Shown here piece by piece: positions 2,394 through 12,208 of a stretch of 41,375 bases of DNA. The stretch covers positions 1-41,375 of the IMG/VR virus record IMGVR_UViG_3300043393_000053, one strand, 5' to 3'. Under the pieces are notes generated by a model, which saw nothing but the letters and a program-made list of their open reading frames with translations, searched no databases and was not told where the DNA came from. Position 1 is the first letter of the stretch. Each line of letters begins with the position of its first letter. A program made the position numbers and the translations under genes. The DNA comes from a virus. Taxonomy: Duplodnaviria > Caudoviricetes.

Positions 2394-2419
2394 TAGGCGT
2401 ATTGCCTAGTTAGCCGGCT
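2394..2419 (+). other. Left junction of the array (attI/attG-like G|TTAGCC site)
   Basis: GTTAGCCGGCT (2409-2419) is the exact reverse complement of AGCCGGCTAAC at attC1 R''; no attC hairpin upstream; preceded by inverted repeat TAGGC-N5-GCCTA. Confidence 0.7.
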
Positions 2420-2858
2420 CGTAGTCCTGGACCACTTCGTCTCTCAGGGCGTCAATCGCATACTGCGGCACCACGTATCCAGCCGCGCGCAATTGCTCAA
2501 GCCGGTCGGCGCAGTCGGTCGGGCTTGCATCGTTGAACGAGTCGCCGTCGAAAGCGAGGCCAATCGGCCGCAGCGGGATCAAGTGCAGCGAGGCCATGTG
2601 CACGCGGTTGTGCCAGAAGGCCGCGAACCCAAACACGATGCGAGCGCCCAACTCGTGCCAACGGCTTGGGTACACCATGCGCCGCTCGGTGCGGTTGTAT
2701 GTGCCGCCAAAACTCGGCAGGCGCATTACCGGCACGTCAGGTATAGGCGGCACGCGGCGGCGGCTACCGGCAACGTGCGTTGCCCATCCGCCGCCAACAT
2801 CGGCATACACGTACACGTCGCAGCGCCAATTCATGCTGCTCCATCTGCAATAACTCAT
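2406..2858 (-). CDS. Cassette 1 hypothetical protein
   Basis: 150-aa ORF filling the cassette; stop codon lies just outside the crossover G. Confidence 0.8.
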   Translation of the reverse strand: MSYCRWSSMNWRCDVYVYADVGGGWATHVAGSRRRVPPIPDVPVMRLPSFGGTYNRTERRMVYPSRWHELGARIVFGFAAFWHNRVHMASLHLIPLRPIGLAFDGDSFNDASPTDCADRLEQLRAAGYVVPQYAIDALRDEVVQDYEPAN

Positions 2859-2892
2859 GCTCTCGCCCTTACCTTTGTCGCTTCCATCAGCC

Positions 2893-2946
2893 GGCTAACC
2901 CCGTTTTCGAGCGGACTGAGTACAGCCGCTCAAAACAACGTTAGCC
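2893..2946 (+). repeat. attC-like site 1 (54 bp)
   Basis: GGCTAAC...TTT(C)GAGCGG(A)CTG/CAGCCGCTCAAA...GTTAGCC; two extrahelical bases (G and T on the bottom strand). Confidence 0.92.
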
Positions 2947-2981
2947 AGACACCAAATACCTGCATGCCTGGCGCCGTAGAG

Positions 2982-3374
2982 TTAAGCCGTGTGGGTGCCT
3001 TCCACACCACGAGCCATACGCGCGCGAGTGCGGCGCTGCAAGGCGGCTTGCGCTCGCTCCATGCACGTCAGCGCTTCGGCGTTGTCGGCGCTGGCATAGG
3101 GTCCGGCTTGGAAGCCACGCATGCGGTCGCACAGAATCGCCAGCAGGGCCTCGTGCGTTACGCCGTTCACGCCCACCTCGTTGATCGGCCCGTTCTGAAA
3201 CAAGATCAGGCAGGTGTTGGGGTCTTGGTCGTCGGGGTCCGATGGGTTCGTCGTGTTGTCAAACCCGGAAATCAGGTATGCGTGGTTCGCGTTGCCGCTG
3301 CCGGGCTCATCCATCACGCGCACGGCCAGCGTGTCGTTTGCGGGGTTCACTTTGTGGTCGTCGAGGTATCGCAT
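2982..3374 (-). CDS. tad1: Cassette 2: Tad1-family anti-Thoeris/anti-CBASS nucleotide sponge
   Basis: PGSGNANHAY...FQNGP...GV..EALLAILCDRMRGFQAGPYAS.DNA.AL...RR...R..RGVEGT follows the recalled Tad1 sequence pattern over the full length. Confidence 0.85.
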   Translation of the reverse strand: MRYLDDHKVNPANDTLAVRVMDEPGSGNANHAYLISGFDNTTNPSDPDDQDPNTCLILFQNGPINEVGVNGVTHEALLAILCDRMRGFQAGPYASADNAEALTCMERAQAALQRRTRARMARGVEGTHTA

Positions 3375-3408
3375 CGCTATCCTTCTGTGTGCCAGCGTCA
3401 CGGGTGCT

Positions 3409-3504
3409 GGCTAACCCTTCCATCGAGCCGAAAACCCCGGCTTACGGGTGGTCCATCTGTCACGTCTGCACGGCCGGGTTTTCGGCTCATGTCAAACGTT
3501 AGCC
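3409..3504 (+). repeat. attC-like site 2 (96 bp)
   Basis: GGCTAAC-CCTTC-CAT(C)GAGCCGAAAACC...GGTTTTCGGCTCATG-TCAAAC-GTTAGCC. Confidence 0.92.
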
Positions 3505-3514
3505 AGACACAAAC

Positions 3515-3793
3515 TCACGGCGCGTTCCGCATGTCATGGCTCATCGCGGTGCTGCCGCAGCGCGAACAAGTTGTGCTCCATGCGCAGCCGTCTTCGCTCT
3601 CCCACGGTTCGCCGTCCCACTTGTGCTCGCACGGGCCGCCCGTGCCGCACGCGCAGTAGCACGCGAACGGCTTGGCTGTCGTGCGCAGGGTTTGCAATGG
3701 CACTCCCCACGCATCGGCCATCTTCTGCAAATGCTCCTGCACCTCCGCATTGCGGCGGGCGCGCAGGGCCGCGAAGTCGGGCGCTGCATCCAT
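3515..3793 (-). CDS. Cassette 3, second gene: Cys/His-rich putative zinc-binding protein
   Basis: CYCAC, CEH and CSRC motifs; starts 2 nt after the acb2 stop. Confidence 0.7.
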   Translation of the reverse strand: MDAAPDFAALRARRNAEVQEHLQKMADAWGVPLQTLRTTAKPFACYCACGTGGPCEHKWDGEPWESEDGCAWSTTCSRCGSTAMSHDMRNAP

Positions 3794-3795
3794 GC

Positions 3796-4053
3796 TCAAA
3801 AGGTGGTGGGCTGTGCAATGCCGCGAATCACGGCCATGAAGCCGCGTTGCAGGTCGGTCGAGCCAATGCTGATCCAGCGTTGGTCGAGCGAAAGGCCAGG
3901 TGCAGGCCCATCCGGCGAGCCGCCGACTGCGCGCAGCTTGGCGACGTAGGCGCCGCACTGCTCGGCCAGCGACTTGCCTTCGTTCATCAGCTCCACCTCG
4001 GCCTCGCTCAGTTGACGGTAACCTGTGATCTTCGGTTGAATCATCGTTTCCAT
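3796..4053 (-). CDS. acb2: Cassette 3: Acb2-family anti-CBASS cyclic-oligonucleotide sponge
   Basis: KITGYRQLSEAEVELMNEGK...RWISIGSTDLQRGFMAVIRGIAQPTTF follows the recalled Acb2 pattern (KIKGYRDLS..EI..MN..K...RWLAIG.TD.Q.G.MA.IRAIAQP..F). Confidence 0.9.
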   Translation of the reverse strand: METMIQPKITGYRQLSEAEVELMNEGKSLAEQCGAYVAKLRAVGGSPDGPAPGLSLDQRWISIGSTDLQRGFMAVIRGIAQPTTF

Positions 4054-4091
4054 GTCATTCCTTCCGGTTGTGCGCCAGCGTTCCGGGTGCT

Positions 4092-4186
4092 GGCTAACCC
4101 TTCCATCGAGCCGAAAACCCCGGCTTACGGGTGGTTCAAATCAACGCCTGAGCGGCCGGGTTTTCGGCTCATGTCAAACGTTATGC
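4092..4186 (+). repeat. attC-like site 3 (95 bp)
   Basis: Arms identical to site 2, different central loop; R' GTTATGC. Confidence 0.92.
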
Positions 4187-4357
4187 GCCTTGCTCGTCAT
4201 CGAAGATTGGGAGCCATTCGCGGCGCTTCACATCCCAATGCTGCGTAGCAAACATCGTCGCTAGCGAATAGAGCGGGTGGTGCGGCTCGCACACGACCCA
4301 TTCGCCGTCATCCTTTTGGTGCCGAACGGTGCCGGCTGCGTGTTCTTCGTTCTTCAA
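4181..4357 (-). CDS. Cassette 4, second gene: 58-aa hypothetical protein (not in ORF track)
   Basis: AGGAG RBS, TTG start overlapping the upstream TGA, stop TAA inside R' of attC3. Confidence 0.6.
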   Translation of the reverse strand: MKNEEHAAGTVRHQKDDGEWVVCEPHHPLYSLATMFATQHWDVKRREWLPIFDDEQGA

Positions 4358-5067
4358 GTTGCACTCCTAGCTATAGAAAGCAGCAGGTCGCGGAAAGGCT
4401 CCGGCGTGGCGTTCCTGATCGCAGTCTTGTTCTTCCCGCCCACCATCGCCACCACGCCGATGCGCCTGGCTTTCTCGTAGCCGTAGCGGTCGATCATCCA
4501 TTGCGGCAGGCGCTGCTCAGTCTTGCCCCACTTCAGGTTGGGCAAGTCTTCGCGCGCAATGCGGTTCGCGTACAACCATGTCGCCTTACCACTTGCGTGT
4601 CCGTAGTGGCCTTGGTACACACAGCACGTCCACCCGCCCAGGCCCGCCGACACCCAGCCGCCACTACGCGGGGGCTTCTCGATGCCATGTGCGTCCCACG
4701 CCTTGCTGTCGGCCGGGTGTTCCAGCACGCCACCGAACGCATCCACGCACGCAAGCGCCGCGCGGAAGCACCCGCCATCGTCGCCCAGCTTGTACTGGTG
4801 CGGCTTGCGCGTGCTGCCGTGCCAGAACCTGCCCCAACGCTGGCAGGGTGGGTGCGCCACCACAGGGTGCGGCCCCGCGTACTTCCTGGCGTCGCGCGCT
4901 TCGTCCCACGGCTCAACTCCTGGCACGCCCACATAGCAGCCCTTCGGCTCCACGTAGAGGGCCGCCACGGTTGCTCGCACATCCACCGGCCGCACAACCC
5001 CTCGGTCGAGCGGACAATGTCCGGCGTTCACCGCTGGCGCATCTGCAAAAAGGTCGTAGCCGGTCAT
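4354..5067 (-). CDS. Cassette 4: DNA cytosine-5 methyltransferase-like protein
   Basis: AHPPCQ (motif IV-like) and VLEHP (motif VI-like); motif I degenerate; start codon lies inside attC4. Confidence 0.6.
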   Translation of the reverse strand: MTGYDLFADAPAVNAGHCPLDRGVVRPVDVRATVAALYVEPKGCYVGVPGVEPWDEARDARKYAGPHPVVAHPPCQRWGRFWHGSTRKPHQYKLGDDGGCFRAALACVDAFGGVLEHPADSKAWDAHGIEKPPRSGGWVSAGLGGWTCCVYQGHYGHASGKATWLYANRIAREDLPNLKWGKTEQRLPQWMIDRYGYEKARRIGVVAMVGGKNKTAIRNATPEPFRDLLLSIARSAT

Positions 5068-5091
5068 TGCCTCTCACCTCAAACGTTAGGC
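4992..5091 (+). repeat. attC-like site 4 (100 bp)
   Basis: GCACAAC-CCCTC-GGT(C)GAGCGGACAATG...CATTGCCTCTCACC-TCAAAC-GTTAGGC. Confidence 0.88.
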
Positions 5092-5388
5092 CCCACGAGC
5101 AATACATGCCTCGCAAGAACAGAATGGTTTGAACCACTTTGTCTCCGTACTTGCTCGCTCCGCATTCTCTTCGCGCATCGCTATCTGACCGTCAATGAAG
5201 CCACGCCGAAATTCATGGTCAAGGGTGGATTGGTTATGAATCCGAAGCCTGTCAACTTCATCCAGTGCAGCAAGTAGCCCGTCGCAAATCGTGCGCTCAG
5301 GCATACCGTGGCTGTGAAGTGCAGCGCCTTCCTCTGCCAGTTCGCGCAGGTATTCGGCGCGCTCCGGCTCCAGGCCTAACCCTTCCAT
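5086..5388 (-). CDS. Cassette 5 hypothetical protein
   Basis: ORF starts within attC5 (ATG at 5388 or 5418) and stops at TAA in R' of attC4. Confidence 0.65.
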   Translation of the reverse strand: MEGLGLEPERAEYLRELAEEGAALHSHGMPERTICDGLLAALDEVDRLRIHNQSTLDHEFRRGFIDGQIAMREENAERASTETKWFKPFCSCEACIARGA

Positions 5389-5740
5389 CGAGCGGGACTG
5401 CCTTCGGCATCCCCTCATTTCGGACGTTAGGCGTCTTGCTGCGGATCATGGAGTCAACAAATGAAGTAACTTGACGCACGCATTCATCACTAAATTGCGT
5501 ACCTATGCGAATGTCGCCAACATGATCGCGCCATTTATCGCCAAAAAGTTGAAATGCCACACCCCTTTCGGCTTCAAAGCATCGCTTTAGGAGTTTGTAT
5601 TTCAAGACATTTTTGTCACGCCAGCCATGAAAAACAAAATTGACTTCTTTTGAGAAGTATTGCCCTTCATTCTCAAAAAATAGCCCGAACGATTGGCCGT
5701 CTCCACGTCTTGCAAGTTCCATGATGTTAAGAAGTTTCAT
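5297..5740 (-). CDS. Cassette 6 hypothetical protein (AT-rich; reads through attC5)
   Basis: ORF MKLLNIMELARR...; no stop before the crossover, so it continues PNV... into cassette 5. Confidence 0.65.
   Translation of the reverse strand: MKLLNIMELARRGDGQSFGLFFENEGQYFSKEVNFVFHGWRDKNVLKYKLLKRCFEAERGVAFQLFGDKWRDHVGDIRIGTQFSDECVRQVTSFVDSMIRSKTPNVRNEGMPKAVPLDGRVRPGAGARRIPARTGRGRRCTSQPRYA
5374..5432 (+). repeat. attC-like site 5 (59 bp)
   Basis: GCCTAAC-CCTTC-CAT(C)GAGCGGGACTGCC TTC GGCATCCCCTCATT-TCGGAC-GTTAGGC. Confidence 0.92.
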
Positions 5741-5766
5741 TCTTGGCCTTTTGTGTTTCGTCAGGC

Positions 5767-5823
5767 GCCTAACCTGCAATTCAAGCCGACGCCTGACGGC
5801 GCGGCTTAATTGCAACTTTAGGC
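5767..5823 (+). repeat. attC-like site 6 (57 bp), crossover G replaced by T
   Basis: GCCTAAC...AATT(C)AAGCCG(A)CGCC/GGCGCGGCTTAATT...TTTAGGC; arms closely resemble classical 59-base elements. Confidence 0.92.
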
Positions 5824-6273
5824 CGGGAGCGGCACCGTGGCGCCCGTGAAAGTGTCAATCAGCGGCTTGCCAGCAGCACGCACTTCGTCCACCGTCATGA
5901 ACTTGGCGCAGGCCCCTTCTGGCAAACCGTCATCCACCAGCAGGCCATAGCGCACGGTCTGCACTTCCAGCGTGGTGCTGCATCGGCAGCCCAGGCTCCA
6001 GCCCCAGTTCTGTTCGCCGCAGGCATCGCACTTCGTGCCCTGGCACACCATGCCAATTGCTTCGCCAGCACGGACGCGGCACTTCGCATTACCGAAGTCC
6101 CATCCTTGCACAGCCTGCGGCGGTTCTGTCGGGCGCGGCTCACCAGCCATTGCGGCTTCGGCGGCTTGCTCAAATACGTTTGCGGCGTCCTGCGCGGCCC
6201 GGCCTAACCCCTTGTTGCAGCCGAGCCCCAACGGCGGGATACTTGCGTTGTCAGGCTGTGAATCTGTAGTCAT
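5818..6273 (-). CDS. Cassette 7 Cys-rich hypothetical protein
   Basis: AGGAG RBS and ATG inside the attC7 loop; stop TAA in R' of attC6. Confidence 0.75.
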   Translation of the reverse strand: MTTDSQPDNASIPPLGLGCNKGLGRAAQDAANVFEQAAEAAMAGEPRPTEPPQAVQGWDFGNAKCRVRAGEAIGMVCQGTKCDACGEQNWGWSLGCRCSTTLEVQTVRYGLLVDDGLPEGACAKFMTVDEVRAAGKPLIDTFTGATVPLPA

Positions 6274-6321
6274 CTTTCTTCTCCTTGCGCCGTTGGTGCC
6301 GGCTGAACTCGAACGTTCTAC
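6202..6321 (+). repeat. attC-like site 7 (120 bp)
   Basis: GCCTAAC-CCCTT-GTT(G)CAGCCG...CCAACGGCG/CGCCGTTGG...CGGCTGAAC-TCGAAC-GTTCTAC. Confidence 0.88.
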
Positions 6322-6667
6322 GGCAATTCAAGCACTTCAGCCCAGCTCCCGCCTTGTTCCACTGCATCGGCCATTCGGTAGCGAGTCGGCGCATCGATGT
6401 CCTTCCACAGGCAACAGTCAGCGGCTTCGCGGTGAGCTGAATACTTCTCGGCACATACCGGGCATGCTGCCGAGTCGGAATCGGCCGCTTTCCCTTGGCA
6501 GCACTCTTCGGCCTCGGTTTCCTCGTCTTCGTCGAATCGTTCGCCACAGACAGGGCAGCCCAGTTGATGAGTTCTCTGGCACTCTTTCGCTTGCCGTCTG
6601 GCACACCAGCGTCTCGTGCTCTGGCGTTCGCAATGAGGCCGCTAAGGTTGAGCGGTGAAAGTTGCAT
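6318..6667 (-). pseudogene. Cassette 8: frameshifted Cys-rich (CPVC x2) protein
   Basis: N-terminal frame MQLSPLNL...ELINW; the shifted frame continues GCPVCGERFDEDEETEAEECC...CPVCAEKY...DCCLWKD...VLELP* and has no start of its own; one G appears missing at about 6559-6561. Confidence 0.65.
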
Positions 6668-6692
6668 GTTCTCTCCGTGCCTTCGTTGTGCC

Positions 6693-6778
6693 GTCGAACC
6701 AGTTAATCGAGCGGACCTCGGGCGGCAGGGCGCATCTGCACCGGTACTGCCTCGGCCCGCTCACCCTAGACGTTGGGC
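6693..6778 (+). repeat. attC-like site 8 (86 bp)
   Basis: GTCGAAC-CAGTT-AAT(C)GAGCGGACC...GGCCCGCTCACC-CTAGAC-GTTGGGC. Confidence 0.85.
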
Positions 6779-6788
6779 AGACGTGTTG

Positions 6789-7100
6789 TCACTTGCTCGC
6801 CATAGCGGCAGCAGCGCGAACGATGGCGTGTCGGGTGGCCTCGTTGGCGTCGTTGCCGAGCATGATCTCTTCCCACGCACCATCCCCCGCCGCGGTCACG
6901 TAGTCGGCACCGTTCCAGCGCAGTTCAATGCGGCATTTCACCGCCAGCCGCAGCGCGTCACCGTCGTCTGTCAGTGGATTCCACAACCTGTGGTCTCCAT
7001 CATCGGCAAAGAGCCAATGTGTGTTCGACGAACGTTTCCACTCGCCAATCTTGTGGCCCACAGCCTTCGCCGCAGCCTCAAGAAGTTCTTTGTCTGTCAT
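6789..7100 (-). CDS. Cassette 9: conserved phage protein, NinX/ABA-sandwich-like
   Basis: MTDKELLEAAAKA...WNPLTDDGDALRLAV...ATRHAIVRAAA pattern. Confidence 0.7.
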   Translation of the reverse strand: MTDKELLEAAAKAVGHKIGEWKRSSNTHWLFADDGDHRLWNPLTDDGDALRLAVKCRIELRWNGADYVTAAGDGAWEEIMLGNDANEATRHAIVRAAAAMASK

Positions 7101-7133
7101 TGTTTGACCCTCGTTCATCGAATCGGTAGCGCT

Positions 7134-7222
7134 GCCCAACCCTTCGCTCAGCCGGACCTCGGGCAGCGTGGCGCTTTTCGCCATTCGCCAAAGCCTCGGC
7201 CCGGCTAGCTCAAACGTTGTGC
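7134..7222 (+). repeat. attC-like site 9 (89 bp)
   Basis: GCCCAAC-CCTTC-GCT(C)AGCCGG(A)CC...GGCCCGGCTAGC-TCAAAC-GTTGTGC. Confidence 0.88.
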
Positions 7223-7235
7223 AGCTTGCGACCTG

Positions 7236-7382
7236 TCAGCATCCCGCACCGATCAACTCGGCGGCGAGTTTGCGACAGGCATCCTCCCAATATGAGGCGC
7301 GGCCCGCGTTGATGCTGCCGGCCCGTGCCCGCTCCAGCCAAAACATGCACTGGTACGTCAGGTGGTGCGCCTTTTTGCTCAT
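7236..7382 (-). CDS. Cassette 10, gene 3: 48-aa hypothetical protein
   Basis: ATGA-coupled to the upstream gene; GGAG RBS. Confidence 0.55.
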   Translation of the reverse strand: MSKKAHHLTYQCMFWLERARAGSINAGRASYWEDACRKLAAELIGAGC

Positions 7383-7552
7383 GGTTGTGGCTCCTTGATC
7401 TTGAGGATCGCGGCCTCGACCGCCTCGGTGCCCACGCGCGCCACCTTGGCCGCAACCTCGGGGTACGTCCGCATTTGCAGCCGTGCCGTGCGCCGCAAAT
7501 CGGGCGGCAGCGCGGGCCGCCCCATCCGCTTGGTCGTTAGGACGGTAGCCAT
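7379..7552 (-). CDS. Cassette 10, gene 2: 57-aa putative DNA-binding protein (ribbon-helix-helix-like; not in ORF track)
   Basis: MATVLTTKRMGRPALPPDLRRTARLQMRTYPEVAAKVARVGTEAVEAAILKIKEPQP; GRP followed by a strand-helix-helix pattern; TGATG coupling. Confidence 0.65.
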   Translation of the reverse strand: MATVLTTKRMGRPALPPDLRRTARLQMRTYPEVAAKVARVGTEAVEAAILKIKEPQP

Positions 7553-7737
7553 CACTCGGTTTCCACGACCTCAAAAGAGCCAATCGGCCCCATATCGCCG
7601 TCCGCAAAGAGTTCGGCCTCTTCGCGGCTCTGAAACGTGCAAGCCAACTCTGTGTCTGTCCAGCAGCGGTCCCCGGCCGGACTGGCAAACCAGAATCCAT
7701 TGTCTTCGGCCGACTTGATTTGGTACTTAGCGCTCAT
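7552..7737 (-). CDS. Cassette 10, gene 1: 61-aa acidic protein
   Basis: AGGAG RBS downstream of the internal promoter. Confidence 0.7.
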   Translation of the reverse strand: MSAKYQIKSAEDNGFWFASPAGDRCWTDTELACTFQSREEAELFADGDMGPIGSFEVVETE

Positions 7738-7781
7738 CTTGCTCTCCTGTTGCGGGCCGCACCTTGCTGCCCATGAGCATT

Positions 7782-7830
7782 AATGTACTCCGCAAATGTC
7801 GGTGCGTCAAACAGTTTATGTACTCCGCAA
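7782..7830 (-). promoter_or_regulatory. Sigma70-like promoter inside cassette 10 with a 13-bp direct repeat
   Basis: TTGACG-17-TACATT on the minus strand (7810-7782); ATGTACTCCGCAA at 7783-7795 and 7818-7830. Confidence 0.7.
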
Positions 7831-7859
7831 TTGTAAAGTTCAGCGTTTCGGAACCGGCT

Positions 7860-7917
7860 GCACAACTGGTTTATCGAGCGGACCGCTTTCAGCGGTCCGC
7901 TCATTGCCAATTTAGGC
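7860..7917 (+). repeat. attC-like site 10 (58 bp), crossover G replaced by T
   Basis: GCACAAC-TGGTT-TAT(C)GAGCGGACCGCT TTC AGCGGTCCGCTCATT-GCCAA-TTTAGGC. Confidence 0.88.
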
Positions 7918-7927
7918 CTCCAGAAAC

Positions 7928-8065
7928 TCACTTTTTGTTGCTGCCCGGGCGTTTGTAGCCCGTCGCATCACGGTGGCAATCCGCGATTTTCGGCTGTGAA
8001 ATCATGCGCGAATAGTCTGCGCGGCGGCGCTCCAAATTGCGCGCCAGTTTTTTGCTTCTCTTCAT
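7928..8065 (-). CDS. Cassette 11: 45-aa basic protein
   Basis: GAGG RBS; MKRSKKLARNLERRR... Confidence 0.6.
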   Translation of the reverse strand: MKRSKKLARNLERRRADYSRMISQPKIADCHRDATGYKRPGSNKK

Positions 8066-8089
8066 TTGCTTTCCTCTCTGTTCACCAAG

Positions 8090-8190
8090 GCCTAACCATT
8101 CGGTCGAGGCGAAATCCCACGGCAAGCGGCCGTGTTGCGCTTCGGTAAGGCCGCGCCGCCGTGGGCTTCGCCTCACCTCAAACGTTAGGG
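8090..8190 (+). repeat. attC-like site 11 (101 bp)
   Basis: GCCTAAC-CATTC-GGT(C)GAGGCGAA...CCCACGGC/GCCGTGGG...TTCGCCTCACC-TCAAAC-GTTAGGG. Confidence 0.9.
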
Positions 8191-8403
8191 CTCTTTCACG
8201 CATGCCATCGCTGCGTCGTATCGCGCCAGGTCGGCCTGCATCTGCGCCTTCGCAATCTTGATGATTTGCGAACTCGCTTTGTAGTAGTTCTTACTTGGTC
8301 CGCTCAGCAGTCCGCTTTCCAGCAGCGCGATCACGGCGCCCCAGGTGTTAAGGTTTGCGTTGGCAGTTGCGGCCTCTTTGGCTGCGGCTTCTTTGGTGCT
8401 CAT
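8185..8403 (-). CDS. Cassette 12 hypothetical helical protein
   Basis: 72-aa ORF, stop TAA in R' of attC11. Confidence 0.7.
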   Translation of the reverse strand: MSTKEAAAKEAATANANLNTWGAVIALLESGLLSGPSKNYYKASSQIIKIAKAQMQADLARYDAAMACVKEP

Positions 8404-8428
8404 ACATTCCCTCGGTTTTCAACCAGCG

Positions 8429-8529
8429 CCCTAACTCTTCGGTCGAGAGGACCCACCCCGGCGTCGCTGTTCGGTTCTTCTGTCATCGTTGTGCCCGCCG
8501 TGGCGGTCCTCTCACCTCAAACGTTCGGC
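8429..8529 (+). repeat. attC-like site 12 (101 bp)
   Basis: CCCTAAC-TCTTC-GGT(C)GAGAGGACC...GGTCCTCTCACC-TCAAAC-GTTCGGC. Confidence 0.9.
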
Positions 8530-8879
8530 CCCAATGCATCGCGCAAGCACTCCATGCGCTCTTGCATCATGCCGTCGTGTGCTTTCGGCAGCACGGTCCC
8601 GTCCCACGCCACCAGCGCACGCAGAGCGGCGTGGGGCAGATCGCGGCTGCGGAGGCTCTTGTATGCCCCGTCCAGCAGTTCGCGTAGGCGCTTGCACTCG
8701 GCCTCGGCATCCTGTTTCTGCTGCACCACATGCCCGAACGCTTCTTTCGCGCCTTCCTCGGCTAACTTGAGCGCCTCGATCTCGTCGCACAAAGCCGAGA
8801 CTTCGCGCATGCGAATCGCCGGCCACCCGTCAGGAGTGTGGTCAACCTCAAAGACGCGCATCTGCTGTACCAAATCCAT
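8517..8879 (-). CDS. Cassette 13 coiled-coil hypothetical protein
   Basis: GGAG RBS; ends PNV* using a stop supplied by attC12. Confidence 0.7.
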   Translation of the reverse strand: MDLVQQMRVFEVDHTPDGWPAIRMREVSALCDEIEALKLAEEGAKEAFGHVVQQKQDAEAECKRLRELLDGAYKSLRSRDLPHAALRALVAWDGTVLPKAHDGMMQERMECLRDALGPNV

Positions 8880-8898
8880 TCTGTCGCTCCGTGTTGAG

Positions 8899-8986
8899 GT
8901 CGAACCAGTTAATCGAGCGGACCGCCACCGGCAGTCAGCGTTTCGTGTCGGTTTGAGCAGCGGCCCGCTCATTGCCAACGTTAGGG
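8899..8986 (+). repeat. attC-like site 13 (88 bp)
   Basis: GTCGAAC-CAGTT-AAT(C)GAGCGG(A)CCGC...GCGGCCCGCTCATT-GCCAAC-GTTAGGG. Confidence 0.9.
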
Positions 8987-8999
8987 CGACACAAAATGC

Positions 9000-9497
9000 C
9001 TACGCGATCTGCACCCGAGCAATTGCCACCAGCCGAGGATCGGCCCGCGTCAAAACGTCGAGCAACAGGCGCTTCTCTTCGAGGTACATGACCGCGAACT
9101 TCGGGTCGTGCAGAACGATGCCGGCGGTGTTGCTTATGATGTCGGCGACTTTGATGGTTTGCACCCAGGCCCACGCCTTTGAAAGCCGTTCACGCGAAGC
9201 GGCCTTTCGCTCGGCGCGGTTGCCCGCCTCCATGTCGCTCAACTGCTCCACCGCATATGCCACGACGCCGCCAAACTTGGCTTCGAGCGTGTCCAGTGTC
9301 ACGACCTGATCTTCCGTGCAATCGTGTAGCCAGCACACTTGCGCCATCACGTCGTAACACAGTTGCTCGGGGCAGGCAGTCATGGCAATGCCAACCACTT
9401 CGGCCAGGTGGTCGGTATACGGGTTGCCCGTGTACTTGCGCCGCTAGTCCTTGTGCACCTCGCGGGCGAACATCATTGCTTCAAATGCATTCATCAT
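9000..9497 (-). pseudogene. Cassette 14: HD-domain protein (RelA/SpoT hydrolase, Mesh1-like) with an in-frame TAG
   Basis: FAREVHKD*RRKYTGNPYTDH...WLHDCTED...IKVADIISN; amber codon at 9444-9446 where the family has Q. Confidence 0.8.
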
Positions 9498-9517
9498 TTA
9501 GGTTCTCCACCAGTGCG

Positions 9518-9537
9518 CCCTAACCCTTCCATCGAGG
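9518..9537 (+). repeat. Truncated attC-like site 14 (R'' and L'' only)
   Basis: CCCTAAC-CCTTC-CATCGAG matches the start of sites 2, 3 and 5; no correctly spaced L'/R' follows. Confidence 0.7.
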
Positions 9538-9611: not shown

Positions 9612-10490
9612 TCATGGCTCAACCGGCGTTGCTTGCGGAGCGCTCATAGCGGCCATTGCTGCATCGCGCTTTGCAATTTCATCGGCGGTTTTCTTGAGCG
9701 ATGTTCGGAGAGCGCTGTGCGGCTTCAGGATCGACCAGAGGGCGAGCTTTTCATCGTTGTCCTCTAAACTTGCCTCCTCAAACGCACCGACATCGTCACC
9801 CTCGTTGAACTTTTGCAAAGCAGCACGCGCCGCATTCCGAACAACTATTGCTCGTGCGGGCGTCAGGCCAAAATTCTTCGGCTGATTCAACGGGTCATGG
9901 TCATCAATGTCGTTGATCGCCTTGCCTTCCATCTCTTCGGCGGTGTATTGAGCTGCGATTTCCGGGAATGCACTGCGCAGGGCCTGGGCAGACGCGCACT
10001 TTGCAATCTGGCCTTTTGGGCGCTTTGTCCACATCGCATTGGGAGCGATAGACTTCTCTTTCCCACCCTTCACAGCGTAGTTCTCAGTCCAATATTCTTT
10101 GGCCGTGAAGTCGCAGATTTCACCAGATGCGAGCCGGCGCTTTGCAGTGACGCGGCACCACTCGGGATAGGTGATTTCCTGCCCGCCGATAACCGTAACC
10201 ACGTCGGGACCGAACTCGGGTTCCGTGATCCCGGCGAACTGTTGCGAGCGCGACGCCTGGATGCGGTACAGGTTGATGCCTGGCATGATGACATCGCGCA
10301 TCGATCCTGAATTGCGGTCCCACATGGGCACGATGTGCACCGGCTTTTGCATCGGGTCAAGCCCGGCTGCGCGGCAGTACTCAATCACCAAGCCGATGGA
10401 TTGCAGCGATGCGCCGGGGTACAGCGATGTTTGAAGTACGGCCAGCATGGTTTCGTTGTTCGGCTGGAGTTGATGCACTACGGCGTTCAT
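9612..10490 (-). CDS. bet: Bet/RecT-family single-strand annealing recombinase
   Basis: GLDPMQKPVHIVPM...PGINLYRIQA...EPEFGP...MWTKRPKGQIAKCASAQALRSAFPE. Confidence 0.88.
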   Translation of the reverse strand: MNAVVHQLQPNNETMLAVLQTSLYPGASLQSIGLVIEYCRAAGLDPMQKPVHIVPMWDRNSGSMRDVIMPGINLYRIQASRSQQFAGITEPEFGPDVVTVIGGQEITYPEWCRVTAKRRLASGEICDFTAKEYWTENYAVKGGKEKSIAPNAMWTKRPKGQIAKCASAQALRSAFPEIAAQYTAEEMEGKAINDIDDHDPLNQPKNFGLTPARAIVVRNAARAALQKFNEGDDVGAFEEASLEDNDEKLALWSILKPHSALRTSLKKTADEIAKRDAAMAAMSAPQATPVEP

Positions 10491-11817: not shown

Positions 11818-12062
11818 CACAGCCCCCCGAAATCTGTCATTGCGGCGCCAGTGAATCGCCGTGACCGGTGCGAGCCATGGGCGCGGGCCAACAGCGTTTT
11901 GGCTGCATCAACTTGACGCTGGCCGAAATTGGCGGCGTTCTCGCGATCGGCGACTTGCTGCGCCAGGTGTTCGGCATGGCGGGCACGGCTCAGCGCAAGC
12001 ATGTCGCGGTTTGCCTGTTGAATTTCATGAAGTTGCGAAGGCGTGAGGCTGGTGTAATTCAC
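11817..12062 (-). CDS. First gene of the leftward early operon, hypothetical
   Basis: GGAG RBS, GTG start downstream of the PL-like promoter. Confidence 0.65.
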   Translation of the reverse strand: MNYTSLTPSQLHEIQQANRDMLALSRARHAEHLAQQVADRENAANFGQRQVDAAKTLLARAHGSHRSRRFTGAAMTDFGGL

Positions 12063-12102
12063 TTTAGCTCCAGGGCGCCGAGACGTTCAGCGCATGGAAG
12101 GA

Positions 12103-12131
12103 ACTATAGGCATTGCCGATTGCATTGTCAA
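12103..12131 (-). promoter_or_regulatory. PL-like sigma70 promoter
   Basis: TTGACA-17-TATAGT. Confidence 0.85.
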
Positions 12132-12208
12132 CGGCATTGCCTATTATATTTTCGACTGGCAGCACAAATAATTAGCAGTGCGCTTGCGGTAAGCATCGGC
12201 AATGCCTA
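12107..12208. promoter_or_regulatory. Three 13-bp palindromic operators
   Basis: TAGGCATTGCCGA (12107-12119), ACGGCATTGCCTA (12131-12143), TCGGCAATGCCTA (12196-12208), overlapping both promoters. Confidence 0.85.

Follow-up and report, generated by a model that had tools for sequence, protein, structure and literature searches.

The stretch of DNA analysed here, referred to as the window, comprises 41,375 bases; it makes up an entire viral record, which has direct terminal repeats and an estimated completeness of 100%. Its layout is lambdoid, with lysis genes, a leftward early region containing RecT, a cro-like gene, NinB, terminase, portal, and major head protein. A gene of the Tad1 family lies on the minus strand between two attC-type hairpins, within an array of integron-type cassettes (Table 1).

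Table 1. Positions of the tad1 locus, the cassette array, and neighbouring features in the window
Feature	Position	Strand	Basis or remark
Tad1-family sponge gene, 130 aa	2982..3374	-	sequence and structure matches
tad1 ribosome-binding site AGAAGGA, 5 nt before ATG	3380..3386	-	sequence
Tad1 cassette, 558 bp	2941..3498	+	between G/TT crossovers 2940/2941 and 3498/3499
attC of Tad1 cassette	3409..3504	+ (top strand)	5' of gene as transcribed; extrahelical base at L'' position 4
attC of neighbouring cassette	2893..2946	+	its R' box bounds the Tad1 cassette on the left
Acb2-family sponge gene, 85 aa	3796..4053	-	sequence match and PF24729
Cys-rich ORF, 92 aa, no known family	3515..3793	-	second gene of Acb2 cassette
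attC of Acb2 cassette (cassette 3499-4180)	4092..4186	+	near-identical to Tad1 attC
Array entry site G/TTAGCC	2409..2415	+	no attC before; attI-like or attG-like; no clear L box
Whole array	2409..9530	+	14 segments; attC sites: 13 complete, plus a half site at 9518
Complete attC sites (starts)	2893, 3409, 4092, 4992, 5374, 5767, 6202, 6693, 7134, 7860, 8090, 8429, 8899	+	
Sigma-70-like promoter, 9/12	7782..7810	-	inside cassette 10, in direct repeat, toward acb2 and tad1
RecT/Bet-like annealing protein	9612..10490	-	just upstream of array, leftward early region
PL-like promoter, 11/12	12103..12131	-	head of leftward early region

The tad1 gene and the cassette array

The motifs by which the 130-aa protein had initially been annotated as Tad1 are all present (G25-x-G-x-A-x-H31-x-Y, FQNGP, DRMRGFQAGP, and RxxRxVEGT). 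In a phmmer search of the PDB the protein matched the CbTad1 and CmTad1 chains with E values from 6.4e-13 to 5.8e-12, and the best match was phiKZ gp184 (E 1.5e-20). The structural role suggested by this top match was rejected since gp184 is itself called Tad1 (10.1101/2025.11.23.690004). An AlphaFold2 model (pLDDT 86, from 34 sequences) predicts a Tad1-type N-terminal beta-sheet along with a pair of long C-terminal helices. With this model Foldseek returned 20 matches at E≤0.001, and among the matches listed 13 of 13 were CbTad1 or CmTad1; the best one, a Tad1, had an E value of 3.8e-8 and a TM score of 0.69, and the next family followed at E 0.43. Membership in the Tad1 family is thus borne out by the sequence comparison as well as by the structure comparison. 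Pfam (E≤0.01) and NCBIfam scans gave no family; PF24729 is nonetheless present as a precomputed record for the protein, and its PHROGs matches are three unnamed families.

The reading frame was compared with two homologues. Between the window and L001 the tad1 frame shows 34 synonymous and 12 nonsynonymous differences (open antisense frame: 7 and 39), and between the window and L156 it shows 41 and 15 (antisense: 13 and 43). By this pattern the plus-strand open reading frame 2493-3659 was rejected as the gene of the cassette. A 91% identical protein from contig L155 is included in the Tad1 homologue table of PMC12393519. The ORF on the minus strand encodes a member of the Tad1 family; considered by itself, the protein adds one more ordinary member to a family already known.

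The attC sites of integrons are described by the boxes R''/L''/L'/R', a convention which agreed here with the class 1 integron locus L054. Our own scan script identified sites with these boxes, spacers of 5-6 nt, an extrahelical base, and a stable bottom-strand hairpin. Both sites flanking tad1 are fully paired in the L box; the hairpin at 2893-2946 has a z score of -7.8 (0 of 200 shuffled sequences as stable) and that at 3409-3504 of -5.0 (1 of 200). The first 8 bases of the Tad1 cassette pair with its own R'' side. The two hairpins confirm the initial reading of tad1 as the gene of an attC cassette.

A relaxed scan of the window yielded 34 candidates with the top strand on the plus strand and 26 on the minus strand. 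Complete L-box pairing (7/7) together with an extrahelical base at position 4 was found in 10 of the former and in none of the latter, and all ten are situated within 2893-8986. With strict settings nine sites were found, all of them in the same interval and with a plus top strand, compared with one site in 10 shuffled windows together. The strict scan recovers 9 of the 13 complete window sites; the script found full L-box pairing in ten sites and 6/7 in the site at 4992, and those at 5374, 6693, and 9518 were assigned by eye. In the 14 segments the bases following G/TT pair with the R'' side of the same cassette at 76 of 84 positions, against a mean of 46 in permutations, none of which (0 of 100,000) reached 76; pairing inside the sites as they now stand amounts to 46 of 78. 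This cassette-wise complementarity of the ends suggests that the units were once circles closed at their own attC.

The entry site shows no clear match to the attI-like sites of two related loci (G004 and L071) when compared by eye. Insertion at short GWT sites has been described (10.1101/2022.09.11.507474), and the site at 2409 could have originated in this way. In the likely source sample, two contigs of low depth depart at 2413 from the sequence of the window, which weakly hints that other cassettes enter at this site. At the opposite end, the last cassette (9000-9494) carries a gene like an HD-domain phosphohydrolase with an in-frame TAG at codon 17, and the half attC lies beyond it. The array may be decaying, as its entry site is weakly attI-like, its distal attC is broken, and the gene of its last cassette contains a stop.

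No tyrosine recombinase was found in the complete phage, since PF00589 gave no match at E≤1 and a tblastn search with IntI1 gave nothing better than E 0.6. The phage genome thus carries at least two attC within 4 kb on one strand and no integrase, as is characteristic of a CALIN, and it does not have the intI in cis of a complete integron. Of the initial annotation the cassette hardware stands; the array belongs to a complete integrase-less phage and not to a bacterial integron, and its genes are inverted relative to attC. In the control region at 12062-12202, which is of the lambdoid type with divergent promoters and a cro-like gene, there is no space for a cI-like gene; with the integrase also absent from the genome, the phage is possibly temperate-derived and obligately lytic. 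No cultured phage was found to carry the array, and eight records match 8% of it or less. Among the sequencing runs listed, one DNA run, possibly the source, contains the sequence, and no RNA run does.

The cassette next to tad1 contains a gene whose product matches Acb2 at E 3e-11, with PF24729 above its cut-off. Y11, K26, R67, and T74, named as key residues of Acb2 (PMC10312549), all have equivalents in the window protein when it is compared with PaMx33 Acb2. The 92-aa ORF follows Acb2 in seven of the fetched loci with 72-84% identity. In attC and leader the Acb2 and Tad1 cassettes are identical at 115 of 137 columns. The adjacent Acb2 cassette supports the earlier suggestion that the cassette hardware stocks counter-defence. 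Recognisable anti-defence genes are present in only 2 of the 14 cassettes; most of the others gave no match or unnamed PHROGs. A 237-aa cassette gene at 4354-5067 belongs to phrog_12600 and has relatives in Pseudomonas phage Persinger, in Caulobacter phages, and in several arrays. The cassette at 5427-5767 is low in GC and has an open minus-strand frame matching no known family.

Gene polarity and expression

As the top strand of attC is the plus strand and the identifiable genes lie on the minus strand, the cassette genes of the window are inverted with respect to attC. The strand assignment was checked against a control: the site at 5767-5823 resembles attC sites of class 1 integrons, and the matching qacL attC of L054 lies on the same strand as the cassette genes there, qacL among them. 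Our own scan likewise puts all three L054 sites on the strand of the cassette genes. In gene cassettes the ORF is usually, though not obligatorily, on the attC top strand, which is not the case for the Tad1 cassette. In 13 fetched Tad1 or Acb2 loci with at least two strict sites, the sponge gene runs against the attC top strand at every site (52 of 52); this count includes the overlapping contigs L001 and L155 and one L072 site that overlaps another.

A leftward early transcript starting from the PL-like promoter at 12131, boosted by the promoter cassette at 7810, would enter the array at its far end and run toward the attI side. Given this presumed direction of entry, only inverted genes would be expressed and kept. 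The Tad1 and Acb2 cassettes each have their own ribosome-binding site. The promoter cassette (7217-7911) also contains small ORFs, one of them like a DNA-binding repressor, and similar cassettes combining a promoter with small genes were seen in L001 and L207. The ORFs at 4354-5067, 5818-6273, and 6789-7184 can start within attC (4992-5091, 6202-6321, and 7134-7222, respectively), reading through the R'' box; for the first of them the L' arm provides a sequence like a ribosome-binding site.

Predicted ligands of the Tad1 protein

Eleven residues of CbTad1 contacting gcADPR have been defined (10.1101/2022.05.03.490397). Mapped by one pairwise alignment, eight of these are identical in the window protein (H29, G55, R78, F82, N92, R109, R113, and G120), and three differ (R57 to I64, F87 to Y93, and N122 to H128), two of them conservatively. 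The letter of the window protein at each contact position recurs in 99-120 of the best 120 homologues; I64, Y93, and H128 are the majority letters among these, and GPI at the R57 position also occurs in CmTad1.

At the trinucleotide site of CbTad1, T97 is kept and R90 is replaced by A96; the Met and Trp of the hexamer interface are replaced as well (M104 to A110 and W105 to A111). Only 9 of the best 120 homologues have Arg at the R90 position, so this site is altered across the subclade. The exchange of R90 for Ala in CbTad1 markedly reduced binding of cA3 and not that of gcADPR (10.1101/2023.11.15.567273), and the R90 site was not needed for anti-Thoeris activity (10.1101/2023.11.15.567273; PMC12393519). 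Because of the three alanines, the trinucleotide site and the hexamer interface are likely to have been lost in the window protein. With Ala in place of the cyclic-trinucleotide arginine, it is likely to act against Thoeris first, and activity against CBASS is uncertain. The CBASS part of the Tad1 repertoire, which the initial annotation had included, should not be assumed for a protein with Ala96 and Ala/Ala at the hexamer positions.

Homologues have been tested in plaque assays. Among 17 Tad1 rows considered from Table S2 of PMC12393519, 11 blocked type I Thoeris and 6 did not; the rows with the layout G.G.A.H.Y / FQ.G[PA][IV], as judged by eye, all blocked it (6/6). Rows 49, 50, and 65 lack the R90 arginine and also blocked type I Thoeris; one of these three blocked cGAMP CBASS in addition, the other two did not. 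Across the sponges of that study, 19 of 84 blocked nothing. Taken together, the pocket residues, the changes of R90, Met, and Trp, and the homologue results of Table S2 make anti-Thoeris activity likely and binding of cyclic trinucleotides unlikely.

We considered whether the protein could be a sponge with the Tad1 fold whose ligand has shifted from gcADPR to a cyclic dinucleotide or another signal. Three of the 11 contacts differ, the trinucleotide site is changed throughout the subclade, and Tad1 homologues are reported to vary in specificity (10.1101/2023.11.15.567273; PMC12393519). However, the residues stacking on adenine and binding phosphate are kept (F82, N92, R109, R113, R78, and H29), and the homologues of the same layout blocked type I Thoeris with R90 present or absent (PMC12393519), so that we regard such a shift as unlikely. 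The preferred reading is that of a gcADPR sponge: Tad1 made early in infection would dimerise and trap gcADPR, so that ThsA is not activated. Without R90 and the hexamer Met and Trp, binding of cyclic trinucleotides is improbable; CBASS signals early in infection would fall to the adjacent Acb2, both of whose sites are intact.

Recurrence of the cassettes and source of the integrase

Metagenome and genome scans yielded at least 101 Tad1 loci and at least 80 Acb2 loci, counts which are lower bounds. Among the matches listed, a strict attC was found within 150 nt of the gene in 6 of the 101 Tad1 loci and in 10 of the 80 Acb2 loci; most of these relatives of Tad1 and Acb2 are not cassette-borne. 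Five of the six Tad1 loci (78-91% identity) are inverted, and the sixth, L044 (47% identity, a single site), has its site on the gene strand. Among the matches listed, all 10 of the attC-flanked Acb2 loci are inverted. The attC flanks of L156 and L159 were seen only by eye, and L146 was found through a DNA pattern.

Several of these contigs differ in what surrounds the cassettes. The Tad1 cassettes of L001/L155, L146, L157, and L158 have different neighbours, and Tad1 cassettes in different contigs bear different attC sites, with one site common to L001 and L146. An identical 52-base Acb2 attC is shared by five contigs, whose sequences cease to match inside the R' box or immediately beyond it, at the GTT crossover. 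Joints with sides of 20-43 bases were set aside, as they probably come from attC sites of other organisms. In the arrays of L001 (1543-2424) and L155 (8604-9620), cassettes resembling DNA methyltransferases by motif were observed alongside Tad1.

A tree of Tad1 was calculated by a quick method from 68 rows, with rows of fewer than 100 aligned residues, with stops, or duplicated being excluded. Eight cassette-borne genes fall into one clade of 14 rows together with six non-cassette genes. The cassette label needs three changes on this tree, from which a single origin is not demonstrable.

In relatives an integrase is found beside such arrays. The complete 39.8-kb viral record G004, a related phage, encodes an intact integron integrase (TIGR02249, 411 bits against a cut-off of 265) and has an attI-like site with about three inverted cassettes (L203 and L207 1-1937). 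Its IntI gene is situated behind the last R' box, as is the IntI remnant in L071; ORFs that by eye look xis-like and integrase-like come after it. At the two ends of G004 the same attI-like site is joined in one case to cassette 1 and in the other to what lies behind the last attC; at the assembly level only, these two junctions are the loaded and the empty form of attI. In L071 (5334-5760) an inverted array which includes Acb2 ends with an attI-like site, and the N-terminal remnant of IntI comes immediately behind this site; as in normal integrons, the remnant is on the strand opposite to the attC top strand. Three further cassette-bearing viral records (G001-G003) were searched over their full length and showed no IntI; only one of them is more than 90% complete. 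In the window, a 147-aa ORF (1939-2382) starts just past the array entry site, which is the position where intI starts in L071 and G004; for this ORF neither Pfam nor PHROGs nor the fetched loci gave a match.

IntI1 has been shown to recombine five of six phage attC sites, which came from integrase-less arrays (Qi et al. 2023, PMC9892861). Strict sites with the arms of the Tad1 attC are present in 2 of the 401 bacterial genomes that were sampled from the order of Chitinimonas, which makes a host IntI a plausible source of the activity. An IntI from the host chromosome or from a co-infecting IntI-bearing phage would fold and recombine the bottom strand of attC at G/TT and, acting in trans, would add, remove, and reorder cassettes.

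Three other explanations of the array were weighed. The hairpins could be elements of the transcript (terminators or RNA stabilisers) or crossover repeats for RecT instead of integrase substrates: they lie between genes of one operon, would fold in the mRNA, RecT adjoins the array, and the Tad1 and Acb2 sites are near-identical. We find this scarcely credible in view of the fixed extrahelical base, the spacing of the R boxes, the likeness to class 1 attC, the end complementarity, which follows the cassette rather than the site, the breakpoints at GTT, and the IntI genes beside such arrays in relatives.

The array might also be a captured segment of a bacterial chromosomal integron in which Tad1 serves the bacterium or hitch-hikes. 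The attC type is common to bacterial genomes, and phage capture of chromosomal integron segments has been described (PMC9892861). However, the genes run opposite to attC and in the direction of the phage early region, the named matches are phage families, and none of the Tad1 loci in bacterial genomes (at least six loci, and also those in 2 of 401 order-level genomes) has a flanking strict attC. Such a capture is therefore very improbable.

According to the third explanation the cassettes are real, but the array is a frozen relic that has lost intI and attI and is reached by no integrase, with Tad1 now fixed as an early gene. The lack of an integrase in the genome, the weak attI likeness at 2409, the half attC and the stop in the last cassette gene fit this, as do the six non-cassette genes within the 14-row Tad1 clade, which would be expected if attC sites decay. 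On the other hand, the attC sites flanking tad1 are fully paired in the L box and the cassette ends are still complementary, the two contigs continue differently at 2413 (weak evidence, from the same sample), and IntI1 recombined phage attC from integrase-less arrays (PMC9892861). We consider a relic to be improbable on balance, with a real chance of being correct. We hold with good confidence that the Tad1-family gene, coding for a predicted gcADPR binder, is an attC-bounded cassette of a 14-unit inverted array and is likely moved by an external IntI.

Relation to known systems

With the Tad1 proteins of known structure (CbTad1 7UAV/7UAW/8SMD, CmTad1 8KBB-8KBD, and phiKZ gp184) the window protein shares the fold (TM about 0.69), 8 of 11 contacts, and the C-terminal R-R-G tail; unlike these it has alanines at the R90, M104, and W105 positions and is encoded as an attC cassette. 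The window Acb2 keeps the Y11/K26/R67/T74 equivalents of PaMx33 Acb2/p26 (8H2J, 8IXZ), from which it differs in being cassette-borne and paired with the 92-aa ORF. As in the phage CALINs of PMC9892861, an integrase-less attC cluster is situated in a phage. DNA methyltransferase cassettes are described in those CALINs and suggested to help against host defence (PMC9892861), whereas the present array, with 13 complete sites, is larger than the clusters in the figure legends of that paper and has signal sponges as cargo. Its genes are uniformly inverted relative to attC; no such inversion was found in the accessible text of PMC9892861, which mentions divergent attC sites in one phage. For IntegronFinder, the accessible description mentions inverted integrases and not inverted ORFs (10.1101/030866).

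Defence cassettes of bacterial integrons are known (10.1101/2024.07.02.601686; 10.1101/2024.07.02.601719). Like them, the window array stocks small arms-race genes on attC hardware; in contrast to them it represents the counter-defence side, with reversed gene polarity and no integrase in cis. Transcription of bacterial integrons proceeds from Pc at attI, whereas that of the window array is predicted to come from the far end. The abstract of AntiDefenseFinder counts integrons among the elements holding anti-defence systems; no system located in integrons is named in the accessible passages (PMC11370490). As in the anti-defence islands (PMC11370490), anti-defence genes stand side by side in a phage, but each such gene of the window is predicted to be a separately excisable unit. 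Tad1, Acb2, and phage CALINs are all known. In the open-access literature, no paper was found that describes sponge cassettes of phage arrays or a systematic inversion.

Since Tad1 and Acb2 sit as neighbouring integron-type cassettes, phages are likely to swap counter-defence genes by the recombination system that bacteria use for stocking defences. Two characterised counter-defence families are thus found on integron hardware on the phage side, and the reversed polarity fits reading from the early operon. This offers a concrete route for phages to gain or drop anti-defence genes, and the 12 other cassettes are a neighbourhood in which new ones may be found. The natural variants, with one Tad1 lineage on several attC sites and an R90-less Tad1 beside an intact Acb2, bear on the origin of cassettes and on a division of labour between sponges.

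More tentatively, and as a generalisation that we consider possible without favouring it, phages may run an integron system of reverse polarity, in which inverted cassettes form a common pool, are read from the early operon, and are reshuffled by phage- or host-encoded IntI, as a counter-defence library mirroring the defence libraries of bacterial integrons. If this is true, the uncharacterised cassettes next to Tad1 and Acb2 would be a productive place to find new anti-defence genes. One Tad1 lineage with unrelated attC sites, and Tad1 and Acb2 sharing attC and leader, would then indicate that cassettes are built by swaps of attC and gene modules, and cassette genesis would become testable by way of such module swapping.
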